40,343 bases of DNA from assembly GCF_003334355.1 (NCBI RefSeq), contig NZ_QOWP01000033.1. The stretch is one strand, 5' to 3'. This document shows, piece by piece, positions 11,745 to 32,101 of this stretch (within the stretch, counting starts at the first letter, position 1; every line of letters starts with the position of its first letter). The notes beneath the pieces were generated by a model. The model ran no database searches and was not told the origin of the DNA. It saw only the letters and a program-made list of their open reading frames with translations. Position numbers and translations under genes: made by a program. This DNA comes from Escherichia coli (GTDB lineage Bacteria; Pseudomonadota; Gammaproteobacteria; Enterobacterales; Enterobacteriaceae).

Positions 11745-12903
11745 AGTGAAATTGGCCGTACCGACATCCGGTGGCTTCTCCGGGCTGAAATCACTGAATT
11801 TGCAGGTCTTCGTGATGATTGCAGCTATCATCGCAATCATGCTGTTCTTTACCTGGACCACCGATGGTGCCTACTTAAGCGCCCGTAACGTCTCCAACCT
11901 GTTACGCCAGACCGCGATTACCGGCATCCTCGCGGTAGGAATGGTGTTCGTCATAATTTCTGCTGAAATCGACCTTTCCGTCGGCTCAATGATGGGGCTA
12001 TTAGGTGGCGTCGCGGCGATTTGTGACGTCTGGTTAGGCTGGCCTTTGCCACTTACCATCATTGTGACGTTGGTTCTGGGACTGCTTCTCGGTGCCTGGA
12101 ACGGATGGTGGGTCGCGTACCGCAAAGTCCCTTCATTTATTGTCACCCTCGCGGGCATGTTGGCATTTCGCGGCATACTCATTGGCATCACCAACGGCAC
12201 GACTGTTTCCCCCACCAGCGCCGCGATGTCACAAATTGGGCAAAGCTATCTACCTGCCAGCACTGGCTTCATCATTGGCGCGCTTGGCTTAATGGCTTTT
12301 GTTGGTTGGCAATGGCGCGGAAGAATGCGCCGTCAGGCTTTGGGTTTGCAGTCTCCGGCCTCTACCGCAGTAGTCGGTCGCCAGGCTTTAACCGCTATCA
12401 TCGTATTAGGCGCAATCTGGCTGTTGAATGATTACCGTGGCGTTCCCACTCCTGTTCTGCTGCTGACGTTGCTGTTACTCGGCGGAATGTTTATGGCAAC
12501 GCGGACGGCATTTGGACGACGCATTTATGCCATCGGCGGCAATCTGGAAGCAGCACGTCTCTCCGGGATTAACGTTGAACGCACCAAACTTGCCGTGTTC
12601 GCGATTAACGGATTAATGGTAGCCATCGCCGGATTAATCCTCAGTTCTCGACTTGGCGCTGGTTCACCTTCTGCGGGGAATATCGCCGAGCTGGACGCAA
12701 TTGCAGCATGCGTGATTGGCGGCACCAGCCTGGCTGGCGGTGTCGGGAGCGTGGCTGGAGCGGTAATGGGGGCATTTATCATGGCTTCACTGGATAACGG
12801 CATGAGTATGATGGATGTACCGACCTTCTGGCAGTATATCGTTAAAGGTGCGATTCTGTTGCTGGCAGTATGGATGGACTCCGCAACCAAACGCCGTTCT
12901 TGA
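11722..12903 (+). CDS. xylH: D-xylose ABC transporter permease
   Basis: 393-aa hydrophobic ORF overlapping the xylG 3' end by 23 nt. Confidence 0.95.
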
Positions 12904-12980
12904 TTTTGATAAAAATTTTCTCGAAGCCGGTAACGTATTACCGGTTTTGAGTTTTTGCATGATTCAGCAGGAAAAGAACC

Positions 12981-19685: not shown

Positions 19686-20534
19686 TTATGTGATCGCGCC
19701 CAGGTCGTCCCTGACAGTAAATCCCAGTTCATTAGAAATAGCCTGCGCGGTTTCACGCAGTGGTTTCAGGAGATTTTTCTCCCCCACCTGTTTCAGACGT
19801 GATGTCGAAAGCGAAATCGACACGGCGTACGGCACCCGCCCATGAATATCAAACACCGGAACAGCAATACAGGAGACGCCGAGTTCGTTTTCTTCTCTGT
19901 CCATCGCCGCTCCGCTTTCACGAATGTGCGCCAGTTCGTCGAACATCGCGGGCAGCTCGGTAATGGTATTGCGGGTTAACGGCTGGATCTCATGCTGATG
20001 GCTTTCCCAGTATGACTTCACGTAGTCCGGGTGACCAAACGCCATGTAGATCTTGCCCATTGCGGAACAGTAGAGCGGCATATGCTGGCCAATATAGGCA
20101 CGGGTTCGCAGCATCCCGGTTGTCGGCTCCAGCTTATAAATCAAAATAGCGTGATCGTCTTCGCGGCTGGAGAAGTTAATGGTTTCACCAGTGGCGATGT
20201 TCAGTGCCTCAAGATGCGGAGCGGCGATATGAATGATATTCAGCGAAGACAGCGCCTTCTGCCCGACGGCAATAAATTTGGTGGTCAGGCGATAACTCCC
20301 TGCGGCAGGCGCGGTGGTCACATAGCCGCAGGACTGTAATCCCTGCAATAAGCGATGGACGGTACTCTTATTTAAACCAGCCAGCTCCGAAAGATGCGCC
20401 AACGGACAACCGTTTGGATAGTTGCTCAAAATCTCAATCAGCATCAACCCGCGAAACAGACTCTGGCTTCCGGCTGGACGCTCTTTTTCCTGCGCCATCT
20501 CGTTCTCTTTTTTTCCCATCACTTCTTTCCCCAT
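19686..20534 (-). CDS. yiaJ: IclR-family transcriptional repressor of the yiaK-sgbE operon
   Basis: 282 aa; N-terminal HTH (…LSELAGLNKSTVHRLLQGL…) and C-terminal IclR effector domain; divergent from yiaK. Confidence 0.93.
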   Translation of the reverse strand: MGKEVMGKKENEMAQEKERPAGSQSLFRGLMLIEILSNYPNGCPLAHLSELAGLNKSTVHRLLQGLQSCGYVTTAPAAGSYRLTTKFIAVGQKALSSLNIIHIAAPHLEALNIATGETINFSSREDDHAILIYKLEPTTGMLRTRAYIGQHMPLYCSAMGKIYMAFGHPDYVKSYWESHQHEIQPLTRNTITELPAMFDELAHIRESGAAMDREENELGVSCIAVPVFDIHGRVPYAVSISLSTSRLKQVGEKNLLKPLRETAQAISNELGFTVRDDLGAIT

Positions 20535-20734: not shown

Positions 20735-21733
20735 ATGAAAGTGACATTTGAGCAGTTAAAAGCAGCCTTTAATCGGGTCTTAATTTCACGCGGCGTTGAC
20801 AGCGAAACGGCTGACGCCTGTGCAGAGATGTTCGCCCGCACCACCGAATCCGGCGTTTATTCTCACGGCGTTAATCGTTTCCCTCGTTTCATTCAACAAC
20901 TGGAAAACGGCGATATCATTCCTGATGCCCAACCCAAACGTATAACCAGCCTCGGCGCAATTGAACAGTGGGACGCCCAGCGTTCGATCGGTAACCTGAC
21001 AGCGAAAAAGATGATGGATCGCGCCATTGAACTGGCTGCCGATCACGGTATTGGTCTGGTGGCACTACGTAATGCCAACCACTGGATGCGCGGCGGCAGC
21101 TACGGCTGGCAGGCGGCGGAAAAAGGCTATATTGGCATTTGCTGGACCAACTCCATCGCCGTAATGCCGCCGTGGGGCGCAAAAGAGTGTCGCATCGGCA
21201 CTAACCCGCTGATCGTCGCCATTCCTTCCACGCCGATCACCATGGTCGATATGTCGATGTCGATGTTCTCTTACGGCATGTTAGAAGTTAACCGTCTGGC
21301 AGGTCGTCAGCTCCCGGTCGATGGTGGCTTTGATGATGAGGGCAATTTGACCAAAGAACCTGGCGTTATCGAGAAGAATCGCCGCATTTTGCCGATGGGC
21401 TACTGGAAAGGTTCTGGCATGTCGATTGTGCTGGATATGATCGCTACTCTCCTTTCCGACGGCGCATCCGTTGCCGAAGTCACCCAGGACAACAGCGACG
21501 AATACGGCATTTCACAAATTTTTATTGCCATTGAAGTGGACAAGCTTATCGACGGTCCCACCCGCGATGCCAAGCTGCAACGCATCATGGATTACGTTAC
21601 TAGTGCCGAGCGTGCTGACGAAAATCAGGCCATTCGCTTACCCGGCCATGAATTTACTACCCTGCTGGCCGAAAACCGCCGTAACGGCATCACTGTTGAT
21701 GACAGCGTGTGGGCCAAAATCCAGGCGTTATGA
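20735..21733 (+). CDS. yiaK: 2,3-diketo-L-gulonate reductase (Ldh_2 family)
   Basis: 332 aa; good RBS (AAGGA) upstream; first gene of the operon. Confidence 0.93.
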
Positions 21734-21741
21734 GGAGATAA

Positions 21742-22212
<471 letters not shown>

Positions 22213-22329
22213 TCGAATAATCGTCTACGCCAGAACGCCTGGGTAATGTTATTGCTCTAACTATATTAATAATTCAGGTTGCTGCACATGCGACTTGAAT
22301 TATGACAGACATAGCCTCAAGGAATAGCT

Positions 22330-22803
22330 ATGAAAAAAATACTCGAAGCAATACTGGCGATTAATCTCGCCGTACTTTCCTGTATTGTATTTATAAACAT
22401 TATTTTAAGATATGGTTTTCAGACAAGCATTTTATCTGTTGATGAATTGTCACGTTATTTATTTGTCTGGTTAACGTTTATTGGCGCGATTGTAGCTTTT
22501 ATGGATAACGCCCACGTTCAGGTCACCTTTCTGGTGGAGAAACTCTCCCCCGCATGGCAGCGACGAGTCGCTCTGGTTACCCATTCCTTAATCTTATTTA
22601 TTTGTGGCGCACTGGCCTGGGGCACAACGCTAAAAACAATTCAGGACTGGAGCGATTATTCACCGATCCTCGGTTTACCCATCGGCCTGATGTATGCCGC
22701 TTGTCTGCCCACCAGCCTCGTTATCGCATTCTTTGAACTGCGTCATTTATATCAACTCATCACGCGTAGCAATTCTCTAACGTCGCCACCGCAAGGAGCT
22801 TAA
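22330..22803 (+). CDS. yiaM: TRAP transporter small permease (DctQ-like)
   Basis: 157-aa hydrophobic protein with RBS AAGGA; immediately precedes the large permease. Confidence 0.92.
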
Positions 22804-22805
22804 TC

Positions 22806-24083
22806 ATGGCTGTGCTGATTTTTCTGGGCTGTCTGTTGGGTGGTATTGCTATCGGTTTGCCTATTGCCTGGGCACTGTTGTTGTGCGGGGCGGCGTTAAT
22901 GTTCTGGCTGGACATGTTTGATGTCCAGATCATGGCACAAACGCTGGTGAACGGAGCCGATAGCTTCTCCCTGCTGGCGATTCCGTTCTTTGTGCTGGCG
23001 GGTGAAATCATGAATGCGGGCGGCTTGTCAAAACGCATTGTTGACCTGCCGATGAAACTGGTGGGGCATAAACCAGGCGGGCTGGGCTACGTCGGCGTGC
23101 TGGCAGCTATGATTATGGCGAGCCTTTCTGGTTCTGCCGTTGCGGATACCGCCGCCGTTGCCGCTCTACTGGTGCCGATGATGCGCAGCGCCAACTATCC
23201 GGTCAACCGGGCGGCGGGGCTGATTGCCTCTGGCGGCATTATCGCGCCAATTATTCCCCCTTCCATTCCGTTTATTATCTTCGGCGTTTCCAGCGGATTA
23301 TCCATCAGTAAGCTGTTTATGGCGGGCATTGCCCCTGGCATGATGATGGGCGCAACGCTGATGCTTACCTGGTGGTGGCAGGCCAGTCGCCTTAATTTAC
23401 CCCGCCAGCAAAAAGCAACGATGCAGGAAATCTGGCACTCTTTTGTCTCCGGTATCTGGGCGCTGTTTCTTCCAGTCATCATTATTGGCGGGTTTCGCTC
23501 CGGTCTGTTTACCCCTACCGAAGCCGGGGCCGTTGCTGCTTTCTATGCGCTGTTTGTCGCCACAGTTATTTACCGTGAAATGACCTTCGCCACACTTTGG
23601 CATGTACTCATTGGCGCGGCGAAAACCACCTCAGTGGTTATGTTTCTGGTGGCCTCGGCACAAGTTTCCGCCTGGCTGATTACCATTGCTGAACTGCCGA
23701 TGATGGTTTCTGATTTACTGCAACCGTTGGTCGATTCACCGCGTCTGCTGTTTATCGTCATTATGGTGGCTATCCTGATTGTCGGCATGGTCATGGATTT
23801 AACGCCAACGGTATTAATTCTTACCCCGGTATTAATGCCTTTAGTTAAAGAGGCAGGAATCGATCCGATTTATTTCGGTGTCATGTTTATCATTAACTGC
23901 TCAATCGGCTTAATTACACCGCCTATCGGTAATGTACTTAACGTTATTTCAGGGGTGGCAAAACTCAAATTCGATGATGCAGTCAGAGGCGTTTTCCCTT
24001 ACGTCCTGGTTTTATATTCATTATTAGTCGTATTTGTTTTTATTCCCGATCTCATCATCCTCCCTTTGAAATGGATTAATTAA
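22806..24083 (+). CDS. yiaN: TRAP transporter large permease (DctM-like)
   Basis: 425-aa polytopic membrane protein, 2 nt after yiaM. Confidence 0.93.
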   Translation: MAVLIFLGCLLGGIAIGLPIAWALLLCGAALMFWLDMFDVQIMAQTLVNGADSFSLLAIPFFVLAGEIMNAGGLSKRIVDLPMKLVGHKPGGLGYVGVLAAMIMASLSGSAVADTAAVAALLVPMMRSANYPVNRAAGLIASGGIIAPIIPPSIPFIIFGVSSGLSISKLFMAGIAPGMMMGATLMLTWWWQASRLNLPRQQKATMQEIWHSFVSGIWALFLPVIIIGGFRSGLFTPTEAGAVAAFYALFVATVIYREMTFATLWHVLIGAAKTTSVVMFLVASAQVSAWLITIAELPMMVSDLLQPLVDSPRLLFIVIMVAILIVGMVMDLTPTVLILTPVLMPLVKEAGIDPIYFGVMFIINCSIGLITPPIGNVLNVISGVAKLKFDDAVRGVFPYVLVLYSLLVVFVFIPDLIILPLKWIN

Positions 24084-24095
24084 AAGGAAAATATT

Positions 24096-25082
24096 ATGAA
24101 ATTACGCTCTGTAACCTACGCATTATTCATTGCTGGCCTGGCTGCATTCAGCACATCTTCTCTGGCGGCACAATCTTTACGTTTCGGTTATGAAACATCA
24201 CAAACCGACTCGCAACATATTGCGGCGAAAAAATTCAATGATTTATTGCAGGAGAGAACCAAAGGCGAGCTGAAATTAAAACTGTTCCCGGACAGCACTC
24301 TCGGTAACGCGCAGGCGATGATCAGCGGCGTACGTGGCGGCACCATCGATATGGAAATGTCCGGCTCGAATAACTTTGCCGGGTTATCACCAGTGATGAA
24401 CTTGCTTGATGTCCCTTTCCTGTTCCGCGATACCGCTCACGCGCATAAAACGCTCGACGGCAAAGTCGGTGATGATCTGAAAGCCTCACTTGAAGGTAAA
24501 GGACTGAAAGTACTGGCCTACTGGGAAAACGGCTGGCGCGATGTCACCAACTCGCGCGCACCGGTTAAAACCCCCGCCGACCTGAAAGGGCTGAAAATCC
24601 GCACCAACAATAGCCCGATGAATATCGCCGCATTCAAAGTCTTTGGCGCTAACCCGATCCCGATGCCGTTTGCCGAAGTCTATACCGGGCTGGAAACCCG
24701 CACTATCGACGCTCAGGAACACCCGATCAACGTCGTCTGGTCAGCAAAATTTTTCGAAGTGCAGAAGTTCCTTTCTCTGACGCACCACGCCTATTCCCCG
24801 CTTCTGGTGGTGATCAACAAAGCGAAGTTTGATGGCTTAAGTCCGGAGTTCCAGCAGGCGCTAGTTTCATCTGCACAAGAAGCGGGTAACTATCAGCGCA
24901 AACTGGTTGCTGAAGATCAGCAAAAAATCATCGACGGCATGAAAGAAGCGGGCGTGGAAGTCATCACCGATCTCGACCGCAAAGCCTTTAGCGACGCACT
25001 GGGGAATCAGGTTCGCGACATGTTTGTTAAAGATGTGCCGCAGGGAGCTGATCTGCTGAAAGCCGTGGATGAGGTGCAATAA
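24096..25082 (+). CDS. yiaO: TRAP transporter periplasmic solute-binding protein (DctP-like)
   Basis: 328 aa with signal peptide MKLRSVTYALFIAGLAAFSTSSLAA. Confidence 0.93.
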   Translation: MKLRSVTYALFIAGLAAFSTSSLAAQSLRFGYETSQTDSQHIAAKKFNDLLQERTKGELKLKLFPDSTLGNAQAMISGVRGGTIDMEMSGSNNFAGLSPVMNLLDVPFLFRDTAHAHKTLDGKVGDDLKASLEGKGLKVLAYWENGWRDVTNSRAPVKTPADLKGLKIRTNNSPMNIAAFKVFGANPIPMPFAEVYTGLETRTIDAQEHPINVVWSAKFFEVQKFLSLTHHAYSPLLVVINKAKFDGLSPEFQQALVSSAQEAGNYQRKLVAEDQQKIIDGMKEAGVEVITDLDRKAFSDALGNQVRDMFVKDVPQGADLLKAVDEVQ

Positions 25083-25085
25083 ACC

Positions 25086-26582
25086 ATGACGCAATACTGG
25101 CTGGGGTTAGATTGTGGCGGTAGCTGGCTGAAAGCCGGGCTGTATGACCGCGAAGGCCGGGAGGCAGGCGTGCAGCGCCTGCCGCTGTGCGCATTAAGCC
25201 CGCAGCCAGGCTGGGCAGAGCGCGATATGGCAGAACTGTGGCAATGCTGCATGGCTGTCATTCGCGCCCTGCTTACTCATTCTGGTGTTAGCGGGGAACA
25301 AATTGTCGGTATCGGCATCTCCGCACAGGGAAAGGGCTTGTTTTTGCTGGATAAAAACGACAAACCGCTCGGGAATGCTATTTTGTCCTCGGACCGCCGG
25401 GCGATGGAAATCGTTCGTCGCTGGCAGGAAGATGGCATCCCGGAAAAACTCTACCCGCTGACCCGACAAACCTTGTGGACCGGGCATCCGGTGTCGCTGT
25501 TACGCTGGCTGAAAGAGCACGAACCAGAACGCTACGCGCAAATTGGCTGCGTGATGATGACGCACGACTACCTGCGCTGGTGTTTAACTGGCGTCAAAGG
25601 CTGTGAAGAGAGCAATATTTCCGAGTCCAACCTCTACAACATGAGTCTTGGGGAATATGACCCGTGCCTCACCGACTGGCTGGGGATCGCTGAAATCAAT
25701 CACGCCCTGCCGCCTGTTGTCGGATCTGCCGAAATCTGCGGGGAGATCACCGCTCAGACAGCCGCCCTGACCGGTCTGAAAGCGGGTACGCCCGTTGTTG
25801 GCGGCCTGTTTGATGTGGTTTCCACCGCACTCTGCGCCGGGATCGAAGACGAATTTACCCTCAATGCGGTGATGGGGACCTGGGCGGTGACCAGCGGCAT
25901 AACCCGCGGTTTACGTGACGGTGAAGCGCATCCGTATGTCTATGGTCGCTACGTTAACGATGGTGAATTTATCGTTCACGAAGCCAGCCCTACCTCTTCC
26001 GGCAACCTCGAATAGTTTACCGCACAGTGGGGAGAAATCTCGTTTGATGAGATCAATCAGGCCGTTGCCAGCTTGCCGAAGGCTGGGGGCGATCTCTTTT
26101 TCCTGCCGTTCCTGTACGGCAGCAACGCCGGACTCGAGATGACCAGTGGTTTCTACGGGATGCAGGCCATTCACACCCGCGCGCACCTGTTGCAGGCCAT
26201 CTATGAAGGGGTGGTGTTCAGCCATATGACCCACCTCAACCGAATGCGCGAACGTTTTACTGATGTTCACACCCTACGCGTCACTGGCGGCCCGGCGCAC
26301 TCCGATGTCTGGATGCAAATGCTGGCGGACGTCAGCGGTCTGCGTATCGAGCTGCCGCAGGTGGAAGAAACCGGCTGCTTTGGTGCGACCCTTGCCGCCC
26401 GCGTCGGCACCGGGGTTTATCACAACTTCAGCGAAGCCCAACGTGACTTGCGACACCCGGTGCGCACCCTGCTGCCAGATATGACCGCCCATCAGCTTTA
26501 CCAAAAAAAATATCAACGTTATCAGCATCTCATTGCCGCACTTCAGGGCTTTCACGCCCGCATTAAGGAGCACACATTATGA
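25086..26582 (+). pseudogene. lyxK: L-xylulose kinase interrupted by in-frame amber codon (TAG at 26013-26015)
   Basis: A single 499-codon frame (498 aa plus stop) is split into 309 aa (25086..26015) and a same-frame continuation to 26582. The stop falls where paralogous XylB in this window has a Trp (LDWAAK versus lyxK NLE*FTAQW), consistent with TGG to TAG. Confidence 0.85.
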
Positions 26583-27241
26583 GCCGACCACTTCTGCAAC
26601 TGGCCCTCGACCACTCATCACTTGAAGCCGCGCAGCGCGACGTGACGCTGTTAAAAGACAGCGTCGATATCGTCGAAGCGGGCACCATTCTCTGTTTAAA
26701 CGAAGGGCTTGGCGCGGTGAAAGCCTTGCGCGAACAGTGCCCGGACAAAATCATCGTTGCTGACTGGAAGGTCGCCGACGCTGGTGAAACGCTCGCGCAA
26801 CAGGCGTTTGGCGCAGGCGCTAACTGGATGACCATCATCTGCGCCGCGCCGCTCGCGACGGTAGAAAAAGGCCACGCAATGGCACAACGCTGCGGGGGTG
26901 AAATTCAGATAGAGCTGTTCGGTAACTGGACGCTGGACGACGCCCGCGACTGGCATCGTATTGGCGTGCGGCAGGCCATTTATCATCGCGGTCGTGATGC
27001 ACAGGCCAGCGGGCAACAGTGGGGCGAAGCCGATCTGGCACGCATGAAGGCGCTTTCAGATATCGGCCTTGAGCTTTCCATTACTGGCGGGATTACCCCT
27101 GCTGACCTGCCGCTGTTTAAAGATATCCGCGTGAAAGCGTTTATTGCCGGGCGGGCACTGGCAGGCGCGGCAAATCCGGCGCAAGTGGCTGGCGATTTCC
27201 ATGCGCAAATCGACGCTATCTGGGGAGGTGCGCGTGCGTAA
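26579..27241 (+). CDS. sgbH: 3-keto-L-gulonate-6-phosphate decarboxylase
   Basis: 220 aa; ATGA overlap with the lyxK stop; OMP-decarboxylase-like fold family. Confidence 0.93.
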
Positions 27242-28094
27242 TCATCCGTTAGGGATTTATGAAAAAGCGCTGGCGAAAGATCTCTCCTGGCCGGAGCGGC
27301 TGGTGCTGGCAAAAAGCTGCGGTTTTGATTTTGTCGAAATGTCGGTGGATGAAACCGACGAACGGCTCTCACGTCTTGACTGGAGCGCCGCACAAAGGAC
27401 TTCGCTGGTTGCCGCGATGATCGAAACAGGTGTTGGGATCCCGTCGATGTGCCTGTCCGCACATCGTCGCTTTCCCTTTGGTAGCCGTGACGAGGCAGTG
27501 CGCGAACGGGCGCGGGAAATCATGAGTAAAGCGATTCGCCTGGCGCGCGATCTCGGCATTCGCACCATCCAGCTGGCAGGTTATGACGTCTATTACGAAG
27601 ACCACGACGAAGGCACCCGGCAACGTTTTGCTGAAGGGCTGGCGTGGGCAGTCGAACAGGCGGCGGCATCACAAGTAATGCTGGCGGTGGAGATTATGGA
27701 TACCGCGTTTATGAACTCCATCAGCAAATGGAAAAAATGGGACGAGATGCTCGCCTCACCGTGGTTCACCGTCTACCCGGACGTCGGCAACCTCAGCGCC
27801 TGGGGCAATGATGTTCCCGCCGAACTGAAACTGGGCATTGACCGTATCGCCGCGATCCACCTGAAAGACACCCAGCCAGTCACCGGGCAAAGTCCCGGAC
27901 AGTTCCGCGACGTGCCGTTTGGCGAAGGCTGCGTCGATTTCGTTGGCATCTTCAAAACGCTGCATAAACTGAACTATCGCGGTTCTTTCCTGATTGAGAT
28001 GTGGACCGAAAAAGCCAAAGAGCCGGTGCTGGAGATTATTCAGGCGCGGCGTTGGATTGAAGCGCGTATGCAGGAGGCTGGATTTATATGTTAG
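27234..28094 (+). CDS. sgbU: L-xylulose-5-phosphate 3-epimerase
   Basis: ORF from 27144; likely GTG start at 27234 ([13 protein letters not shown]) giving 286 aa, overlapping sgbH by 8 nt. Confidence 0.88.
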
Positions 28095-28783
28095 AGCAAC
28101 TGAAAGCCGACGTGCTGGCGGCGAATCTGGCGCTTCCCGCTCACCATCTGGTGACGTTCACCTGGGGCAATGTCAGCGCGGTAGACGAAACGCGGCAATG
28201 GATGGTAATCAAACCTTCCGGCGTCGAGTACGACGTGATGACCGCCGACGATATGGTGGTGGTTGAGATAGCCAGCGGTAAGGTGGTGGAAGGCAGCAAA
28301 AAACCCTCTTCCGATACACCAACGCATCTGGCGCTCTACCGTCGCTATGCCGAAATTGGCGGTATTGTGCATACCCACTCGCGCCACGCCACCATCTGGT
28401 CACAGGCCGGGCTGGATCTCCCCGCCTGGGGCACCACCCACGCCGATTATTTTTACGGTGCCATCCCCTGCACGCGACAGATGACCGCAGAGGAGATTAA
28501 CGACGAATATGAATATCAGACCGGCGAAGTGATCATTGAAACCTTCGAAGAACGTGGCAGGAGTCCGGCACAAATCCCGGCGGTGCTGGTGCATTCTCAC
28601 GGCCCGTTCGCATGGGGTAAAAACGCCGCCGATGCCGTGCATAACGCCGTAGTACTCGAAGAATGCGCCTATATGGGTCTATTCTCGCGCCAGCTTGCGC
28701 CGCAGCTCCCTGCGATGCAAAACGAACTGCTGGATAAGCACTACCTGCGTAAGCATGGGGCCAATGCCTATTACGGGCAGTAA
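28088..28783 (+). CDS. sgbE: L-ribulose-5-phosphate 4-epimerase (class II aldolase family)
   Basis: 231 aa, overlapping sgbU by 7 nt; last gene of the operon. Confidence 0.93.
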
Positions 28784-28813: not shown

Positions 28814-29129
28814 ACTACGAATTGATATGTTCCTTGCTGTAACGCCGCTTCCACGCTGCTGGCGTTAAACCAGTATGTTTCTGAAAAATCTGCCGGAAAT
28901 AGCCAACGTCATTAAACCGTATTGCATGGAGCAGGCCGACAACGTCGAGTCACTGCATAACCTGTTGCTGCCCGCCGATGCGCCATTTACGACATTTGAA
29001 GGCAAGGGATTGTTCAGCCATAAGATCCTGATTCAGACGCCAGGTTCCCGGTATGAACAGAGCAATCCAGAGCAACAACCTTTGTGGCATTACGACGGAG
29101 CACCAGCCGCACCGACATCCACCGGTGAA

Positions 29130-29993: not shown

Positions 29994-30968
29994 ATGACAA
30001 AATTACAACTTAAGTACCGGGAGTTAAAAATTATCTCGGTAATCGCTGCCAGTGAAAATATCAGCCATGCCGCGACTGTACTTGGCATCGCACAGGCCAA
30101 CGTCAGCAAATATCTTGCTGATTTTGAATCAAAAGTGGGTTTAAAAGTCTTTGACCGAACCACCCGGCAGCTGATGCTCACACCTTTTGGCACCGCGCTG
30201 TTACCGTACATCAACGACATGCTGGACAGAAACGAGCAACTTAATAATTTTATTGCAGATTATAAGCATGAGAAACGTGGTCGGGTCACCATCTACGCCC
30301 CAACCGGCATAATTACCTATTTATCCAAACATGTAATCGATAAAATTAAAGATATCGGTGATATCACCTTATCGCTAAAAACCTGCAATCTTGAGCGTAA
30401 TGCCTTTTATGAAGGCGTCGAATTTCCTGATGATTGTGATGTTTTAATCAGCTACGCTCCACCAAAAGATGAATCGCTGGTTGCCAGTTTTATTACCCAA
30501 TATGCCGTAACCGCTTATGCCAGCCAGCGCTATCTTGAGAAACATCCCATTAGCCGTCCTGACGAACTCGAACATCACTCCTGTATTTTGATCGACTCGA
30601 TGATGATCGACGACGCGAATATCTGGCGCTTCAACGTCGCCGGGAGTAAAGAGGTGCGGGATTATCGCGTGAAGGGAAATTACGTTTGCGACAACACGCA
30701 ATCTGCGCTGGAGCTGGCACGAAATCACCTGGGGATTGTGTTTGCGCCAGACAAAAGTGTGCAGAGCGACCTGCAAGACGGCACGCTGGTGCCCTGCTTT
30801 CAGCACCCGTATGAATGGTGGCTGGATCTGGTGGCTATCTTCCGTAAACGGGAATACCAGCCCTGGCGGGTCCAGTATGTGCTGGATGAAATGCTGCGTG
30901 AAATTCGCCACCAGCTTGCTCAGTCGCAGCAATTGCGGCCTGAACAAGCAGCGGAAAGCGAAGATTAA
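29994..30968 (+). CDS. yiaU: LysR-family transcriptional regulator
   Basis: 324 aa; N-terminal LysR HTH (…[33 protein letters not shown]…). Confidence 0.9.
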
Positions 30969-32101
30969 TGATCGAGATAAAGGTAATGCACCCAACTGGT
31001 CATGCGTAACAGCACTTTGCGCATCACCGAGACATGGCTGAAATGATCAGAGTAGACCGCCACCTGGGCGTAAATACCGTCTGGTAAAGCGCTCAAATCA
31101 GTGTGCTCATCCAGTTCAATGGTCGCGATAACGCCATCTGAACCCGGCGCTATGTTTAACGTCTGTAAGGTGCCGGTCGACTGATAAGCTCCGCCGGGAA
31201 CAGCTGGACTAATGGCTGCCAGCTTACCGCTGAACACTTTGCCTGGCAGAGCGTTAAATACCACTTCCGCATCATCGCCGGGAGCCAGGCGCAGCAAGGA
31301 GTTCTGACGGAACTGCGCCACGATTTGTCGTTTCTGATCGGGTATAAACACCATCACCGGACGTAGCGGCAGCGACGCGGCATAGGTACCCGGACGAATC
31401 AGCACCTGGGTCACATAACCATCGCTCGGCGCACGCACTATCGTCTGCTCAAGGTTATATTTTGCTTCCGCGAGCTGCGCTTTCAGGCTGGCGATTTGAG
31501 AATGTTCACCCAACACCAGGCTATCCAGCTGGCTCTGGATCTGTTTTTGTTCCGCCGCCGATGACTTTACGGAGGCTTCCTGCGCCAGATAATTTTGCCG
31601 CGCCACATCAATATCGCGTTCTGAAAACGGGTTTACTTTCGCCTGGCTGCCGCGTGCGTAACGCTGATACTCTTTAGCGAATTTATCCCGCGTGGCCTTT
31701 GCCTGCTGAGTATTCGCCGCCATCTCATCTAACTCTGCGCCCAACGCCCGCTGTTTATGTTCTGCGGTAACGATATCCGCCATCAGCCGATCCACCCGCG
31801 CCTGATAACGCGTCGGGTCCAGTCGAAATAGCACCTCACCTTTTTTAATCAGCGTATTTTTCTTATCCGTCACTTCGATCACCACGCCTGTCACCTGTGG
31901 GACAACAGGAATAGAAATAACCGCTTTTTGCGCTTTGAAGGTATACGGATGGTTATAGTTCATTAACAGAATTAAACCACTGACAATAAATATGCCACCC
32001 AGAGCCGCTGTGGGAATGGTCCATTTATTTACAGGAATTTTGAAGATCTTAAACATTGCCCATGCAAAAGCCACATAGGTCAAAACAATCAGTAAATCCA
32101 T
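30965..32101 (-). CDS. yiaV: Membrane fusion protein (HlyD/EmrA/AaeA family)
   Basis: 378 aa; N-terminal TM helix, coiled-coil segment, beta-barrel region; convergent with yiaU with overlapping stop codons. Confidence 0.9.

Follow-up and report, generated by a model that had tools for sequence, protein, structure and literature searches.

Does the in-frame amber codon that splits lyxK, a sugar kinase gene of the yiaK-S operon, correspond to a genuine loss of the gene in the Escherichia coli strain that carries it, and if so, what would this loss entail for the pathway and for the genes located downstream? We addressed this question within the window, namely the whole 40,343-nucleotide stretch of DNA that was analysed, whose features of interest are collected in table 1. 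We consider it highly probable (roughly 0.9) that the codon is a genuine, recent, and strain-specific nonsense mutation, W310*, that makes a pseudogene of lyxK, in an operon that is normally silent and dispensable and whose defective alleles would be nearly neutral.

The lyxK gene and its amber codon

The identity of the interrupted gene is supported by several observations. Its 1,497-nt frame is matched in 4,853 of 5,426 complete E. coli genomes, all listed annotations being lyxK (L-xylulokinase), and the counterpart coding sequence of strains MG1655 and PSS-12 is found between yiaO and a gene annotated as ulaD (i.e., sgbH), within the yiaKLMNO-lyxK-sgbHUE operon, at a locus that adjoins the divergent repressor gene yiaJ in the annotations of both genomes. 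At the nucleotide level, the lyxK of the window is identical to that of K-12 at 1,495 of 1,497 positions, the only differing bases being 26014 and 26388, and this near-identity implies that the lesion affects a known gene rather than a chance pattern of open reading frames. When the missing tryptophan is restored, the translation displays the FGGY_N (PF00370, residues 4–250, E = 5.9e-96) and FGGY_C (PF02782, residues 259–439, E = 1.2e-19) Pfam domains. The locus, its neighbors, and the domain architecture are hence those of the E. coli K-12 lyxK (UniProt P37677), and the pair of FGGY domains, the position between yiaO and sgbH, and the near-identity to the K-12 gene all identify a LyxK orthologue, with the exception that the TAG at codon 310 leaves no uninterrupted frame for the 498-aa enzyme. 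Unlike the K-12 gene, the lyxK of the window harbors W310* in addition to A435T, which makes a full-length enzyme impossible by normal decoding: it is a lyxK pseudogene and does not count as a functional orthologue. As far as annotation is concerned, it should be flagged as such (internal stop, W310*).

With regard to function, the passages of PMC6958661 that deal with this operon describe the lyxK/yiaP product as an L-xylulose/3-keto-L-gulonate kinase and the operon as repressed by YiaJ (citing Sanchez 1994, Ibanez 2000, and Campos 2007), and the same passages, via the older work that they cite, present yiaK-S as a cryptic operon implicated in the use of L-lyxose, L-xylulose, and ascorbate (PMC6958661). 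From an evolutionary perspective, LyxK has been depicted as a recent specialisation among FGGY proteins, restricted to a few gammaproteobacterial groups (PMC3245297).

On the + strand, the site reads AAC CTC GAA TAG TTT ACC. The translation of positions 25086–26585 contains a single internal stop, at codon 310 (SSGNLE*FTAQWGEISF), and ends at the normal TGA at 26580–26582; between the two, the frame is open, with neither a frameshift nor an additional stop, and the listing of open reading frames breaks it into a 309-codon frame and a downstream remnant. All coordinates of the original prediction are exact, as are its codon number and the peptide that it gives around the TAG. The substitution of TGG by TAG that it had put forward is likewise borne out by the alignment, MG1655 and PSS-12 both reading TGG at codon 310: base 26014 is a G in the reference lyxK and an A in the window, and the eventuality that the reference might itself carry a TAG is ruled out by K-12 MG1655. 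A tryptophan is indeed present at the equivalent position of the XylB encoded in the same window, as had been proposed (GNLEWFT in LyxK aligns with SCLDWAA in XylB), and W310 is also aligned with a tryptophan in the solved FGGY kinases 3ifr (LNW) and 5vm1 (LEW) of the PDB.

With 173 mismatches to MG1655 in 35.3 kb of BLAST alignment, the window comes from a natural E. coli strain other than K-12. The complete genome closest to it is that of PSS-12, which presents only 5 differences over 37,444 bases, reads TGG at codon 310, and possesses A435T. Since a TGG is thus found on a PSS-12-like background, the nonsense change is a recent G>A transition, when A435T, common to the window and to PSS-12, must be older. 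A 61-mer centred on the TAG has no exact match among complete E. coli genomes: all of the 3,690 genomes that match it do so with at least one mismatch, and those that were examined read TGG. An ancestral codon in the closest relatives, an allele that is reproducible, and a frame devoid of further decay, as expected of a recent nonsense pseudogene, are therefore all found here, the substitution and its ancestral state being directly established.

Table 1. Features of the window that bear on the interruption of lyxK (positions are those of the window).
Feature	Position	Strand	Description	Basis
yiaJ (plaR)	19686..20534	-	IclR-family repressor of the operon, intact	annotation and translation; repressor role from PMC6958661
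yiaKLMNO-lyxK-sgbHUE operon	20735..28783	+	every frame except lyxK intact	
lyxK (yiaP)	25086..26582	+	disrupted; 498 codons plus TGA	MG1655 and PSS-12 annotation at the equivalent position
Truncated frame	25086..26015	+	predicted 309-aa product with the entire FGGY_N and the first ~51 residues of FGGY_C	listing of open reading frames, Pfam
Premature amber codon	26013..26015	+	TAG at codon 310, from the transition G26014A; ancestral TGG (Trp)	sequence, comparison with MG1655 and PSS-12
lyxK region untranslated after the stop	26016..26578	+	563 nt, encoding the rest of FGGY_C, including TGGPAHS	composition scan
lyxK A435T	26388	+	G>A relative to K-12, common to PSS-12	alignment
sgbH (annotated ulaD) start region	26565..26581	+	Shine-Dalgarno AAGGAG at 26565-26570, ATG at 26579-26581	sequence, annotation
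Window-derived changes	23807; 26014; 28503		yiaN P334 synonymous; lyxK W310*; sgbE G139D	polarised with K-12
PSS-12-derived changes	23556; 26425		yiaN V251F; lyxK N447S	polarised with K-12
Two gene remnants between sgbE and yiaT	~28815-28916; 28920-29108		AraC-family C-terminal fragment; hypothetical-protein fragment	

Recurrence of nonsense alleles and dispensability of lyxK

The same TAG was also found on two other haplotypes, in contigs from the runs SRR10298268 and ERR4843394, which differ from the window by 57 and 128 mismatches, respectively, and read GCC at codon 435. The SRR10298268 contig differs from its nearest complete genome, BUCT2930, by one mismatch, which is the TAG site, and by a 1-bp intergenic indel; the ERR4843394 contig differs from its own nearest complete genome, 14EC007, by two mismatches, one of which is the TAG site, and both BUCT2930 and 14EC007 read TGG at codon 310. 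The second mismatch between ERR4843394 and 14EC007 is another G>A transition, at position 8355 of the contig, which falls in yiaW by its coordinates. The recurrence itself is directly established, and it would most simply be explained by the same G>A having arisen three times, once in the lineage of the window and once on each of the two other backgrounds. On the latter two, short-patch recombination may have acted instead of independent mutation, since lyxK is nearly invariant among these backgrounds.

To put this recurrence into perspective, we looked up, as controls, the truncated products that would result if other lyxK codons lying one step away from a stop became nonsense codons. W266 is replaced by TAG in five places and by TGA in four, W315 by TAG in three places (plus 12 similar ones) and by TGA in two, and Q314 by TAG in one place. 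Nonsense alleles at these control codons are as common as or commoner than W310*, and codon 310 is in this regard unexceptional. Like W310*, these public alleles each consist of a one-step transition to a stop within a K-12-like lyxK, and they differ from it by the codon only. W310* is consequently an ordinary allele, its equivalents in lyxK being already numerous in public data. Among the control sequences, it can also be mentioned that the one from ERR14040935 (together with 6 similar places) continues, immediately after the TGA at W315 (near gene position 946), with sequence that bears no relation to lyxK, and that the one from SRR22352202 departs from lyxK near gene position 1425; these breaks may be junctions of insertions or rearrangements rather than simple point mutations.

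Could this repeated loss of LyxK be positively selected, in which case the recurrent W310*, W266*, and W315* would be convergent adaptive knockouts and not the products of neutral decay? If so, the yia route would be shut off at LyxK in some niches, possibly to avoid a toxic build-up of sugar phosphates or a wasteful flux derived from ascorbate. The idea can draw on the existence of the same or equivalent nonsense alleles on several backgrounds, on the location of all five differences between the window and PSS-12 inside the operon, and on the fact that 5 of 6 lineage-variable sites change the protein. We nonetheless deem it quite unlikely, because the alleles lie at the tips of the tree, each with a near-identical relative that reads TGG; because W310* is found in none of the complete genomes (3,690 with a match to the 61-mer); because different sites and both types of stop are affected, as mutation pressure would produce in a deeply sampled gene devoid of constraint; and because the counts are low and clustering was tested post hoc. 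Alternatively, position 26014 might be a mutational hotspot, which would account for its three occurrences. If the identical G>A on three haplotypes has indeed the appearance of a hotspot, the opposite-strand context, AAACCATTC, is not a Dcm CCWGG site, and independent nonsense alleles, produced by both possible transitions, are at least as numerous at W266 and W315, which leaves this explanation very improbable. Given that codon 310 is unexceptional relative to the control codons, there is no need to call upon a hotspot or selection here and, more generally, recurrent nonsense SNPs should be compared with control sites before one or the other is invoked.

The near-neutral decay of a dispensable gene, which is the reading that we favor, finds parallels in other natural lineages. 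Indeed, lyxK is absent from 573 of the 5,426 complete E. coli genomes; lineages 2 and 3 of Shigella sonnei have fixed a deletion of about 22 kb that extends from xylFGH to lyxK and the sgb genes (PMC12795559); and the lyxK of Salmonella Gallinarum is a pseudogene by a 1-bp substitution (PMC8538453). The latter two cases likewise represent the inactivation, in natural lineages, of the same dispensable pathway, whereas the loss in the window comes down to a single point nonsense mutation, recent, limited to a small sub-lineage, and surrounded by an otherwise intact operon. Together, the recurrence of nonsense alleles, the absences among complete genomes, the S. sonnei deletion, and the S. Gallinarum pseudogene imply that lyxK is weakly constrained, and W310* provides one more data point for a weak constraint on the cryptic yiaK-S operon in E. 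coli and its relatives. As the operon is silent in ordinary conditions and dispensable in nature, alleles such as W310* would be close to neutral; they appear time and again and survive on terminal branches of the E. coli tree.

Reproducibility and decoding of the amber codon

The exact 309-aa product is present in assemblies of public runs, where gene callers report it on independent contigs. Among the 10 places returned for this product, six were contigs whose sequence runs out at codon 310 or inside it, several reading TG there, and were discarded as evidence; the four others continue past the site and read TAG. The ERR4578542 contig, common to 6 samples, and the SRR3823860 contig match the window at 100% identity, TAG included, along 16,980 and 9,809 bases, respectively; these two contigs were recovered again by a look-up of SgbE. 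The evidence for reproducibility thus consists of assembled contigs, and amounts to at least seven sequencing runs that share an identical haplotype comprising the TAG, which excludes a random error of sequencing or assembly. The possibility that the true base at 26014 is a G and that lyxK is intact had been raised along with the original prediction and, now confronted with independent assemblies, it can be discarded as extremely improbable: if a private error would also leave complete RefSeq genomes without the allele, the identical haplotype, TAG included, recurs in contigs from these separate runs, and the site lies outside any homopolymer or repeat. The six or more runs that yielded an identical contig could stem from one strain sequenced several times, perhaps the very source of the window, and a mutation specific to a laboratory clone may, unlike a random error, be compatible with them. 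As a side observation, exact look-ups of truncated proteins in huge assembly collections return many partial products at contig ends that mimic nonsense alleles, the control look-ups being no exception, and such products should hence be filtered by requiring sequence beyond the stop.

A genuine amber codon might still be decoded, through a natural suppressor tRNA or programmed readthrough, such that a full-length LyxK (e.g., W310Q) would be made. The frame beyond the stop is undegraded, FGGY_C included, and amber suppressors of the supE44/glnV44 type, supE inserting a glutamine, occur in laboratory K-12 strains. However, the recent age of the mutation, as measured by the 5 SNPs between the window and PSS-12, accounts for the preservation of the downstream frame, and the host is not a K-12 strain, in view of its divergence from MG1655. 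Moreover, the stop is not conserved, being matched exactly in none of the genomes compared and replaced by TGG in the nearest relatives, and the base that follows the TAG is a T, UAGU being a context in which E. coli terminates translation efficiently. A search for tRNA genes in the 40-kb window returned none. Readthrough has accordingly next to no probability in our eyes, and suppression by supE in the strain of the window is hypothetical.

Predicted consequences for the kinase and for the downstream genes

If the TAG that G26014A has put in place of the Trp310 codon acts as an ordinary stop, translation would end after residue 309. The consequences for the domains are directly established: residues 310–498 are removed and, according to the Pfam boundaries, the fragment retains about 50 of the 181 residues of FGGY_C and misses about 130. 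A 309-aa fragment without the C-terminal FGGY domain had been anticipated, and this holds for the length and for most of the domain, with the correction that the stop is located inside FGGY_C and not before it. The lost part of FGGY_C comprises the TGGPAHS motif, which, from general knowledge of FGGY/ASKHA proteins, we take to be the nucleotide-binding glycine motif. Because about 130 of 181 FGGY_C residues are missing, the nucleotide-binding part among them, the 309-aa fragment, made of FGGY_N and the first quarter of FGGY_C, should be without kinase activity. As LyxK is the only kinase of the yiaK-S pathway (2,3-diketo-L-gulonate/L-xylulose/L-lyxose), the yia route would come to a halt at the phosphorylation of 3-keto-L-gulonate/L-xylulose. 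The strain is hence predicted to be unable to use this route even if yiaJ were derepressed, be it for L-lyxose via L-xylulose or for the 2,3-diketo-L-gulonate/aerobic ascorbate branch.

The amber codon might also affect the expression of sgbH, sgbU, and sgbE, located downstream. In this respect, the situation resembles that of classical polar amber mutants (lacZ, trp), in which a UAG likewise occurs within a gene at a promoter-proximal to middle position of a polycistronic operon. The RNA that separates the stop from the next start is long, untranslated, C-rich, and G-poor, as expected for a polar amber: C exceeds G in 63% of the 78-nt windows of 26016..26578, with a peak C/G ratio of 2.6 at 26465–26545. 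A scan of the same interval found neither promoter-like nor intrinsic-terminator-like sites between the stop and sgbH. The length of this untranslated stretch, its richness in C, and the lack of such sites make a Rho-dependent polarity on sgbH, sgbU, and sgbE plausible as judged from the sequence. Unlike in the lacZ and trp amber mutants, however, polarity and suppression by supE are both hypothetical for the lyxK of the window, sgbH is preceded by a strong Shine-Dalgarno sequence, and repression is the usual state of the operon. As a matter of fact, the ATG of sgbH overlaps the TGA of lyxK as ATGA and is preceded, 8 nt upstream, by its own AAGGAG, so that the initiation of sgbH need not depend on translational coupling; the normal repression of the operon is a further point against a strong polar effect. 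Re-initiation within lyxK after the stop was also considered and was not retained, in-frame starts having a weak Shine-Dalgarno sequence or none. The best of them, the ATG at 26139, with a GGA at -9, opens a 147-aa open reading frame, and gene callers do report a 147-aa FGGY_C open reading frame.

Beyond the amber codon, the five differences between the window and PSS-12 all fall within 23556–28503 (yiaN to sgbE, 5 kb), and none was found in the other ~32 kb compared. This clustering in the operon suggests a relaxed constraint or a small recombination patch, on the basis of few sites and of a post hoc test. One of these changes, SgbE G139D (28502–28504), was envisioned as a second damaging hit or as a lineage marker, and was rejected on both counts. 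Indeed, an identical SgbE is native to divergent lineages with an intact lyxK, two contigs that combine the Asp139 SgbE with an intact lyxK showing about 200 mismatches over 7.7 kb, which implies that D139 is a tolerated natural allele and that it cannot serve to order the events of the lineage.

The original prediction had further held that every other gene of the window is intact. This stands for yiaJ and for the other genes of yiaK-S, but not for the interval between sgbE and yiaT, which harbors two gene remnants. These remnants are annotated as pseudogenes at the equivalent positions of K-12, PSS-12, 14EC007, and BUCT2930, and are ancestral, shared relics unrelated to W310*. At the edge of the window, rhsA (RHS element core protein, 40186–40343) is cut about 160 nt in by the end of the sequence and is not disrupted. 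Finally, the differences from K-12 cluster at about 12000–12932 (xylH) and at 30800–31150 (yiaU/yiaV), many of them at a 3-nt spacing, and long stretches elsewhere in the window are identical to K-12; these clusters are the usual E. coli mosaic of recombination tracts.
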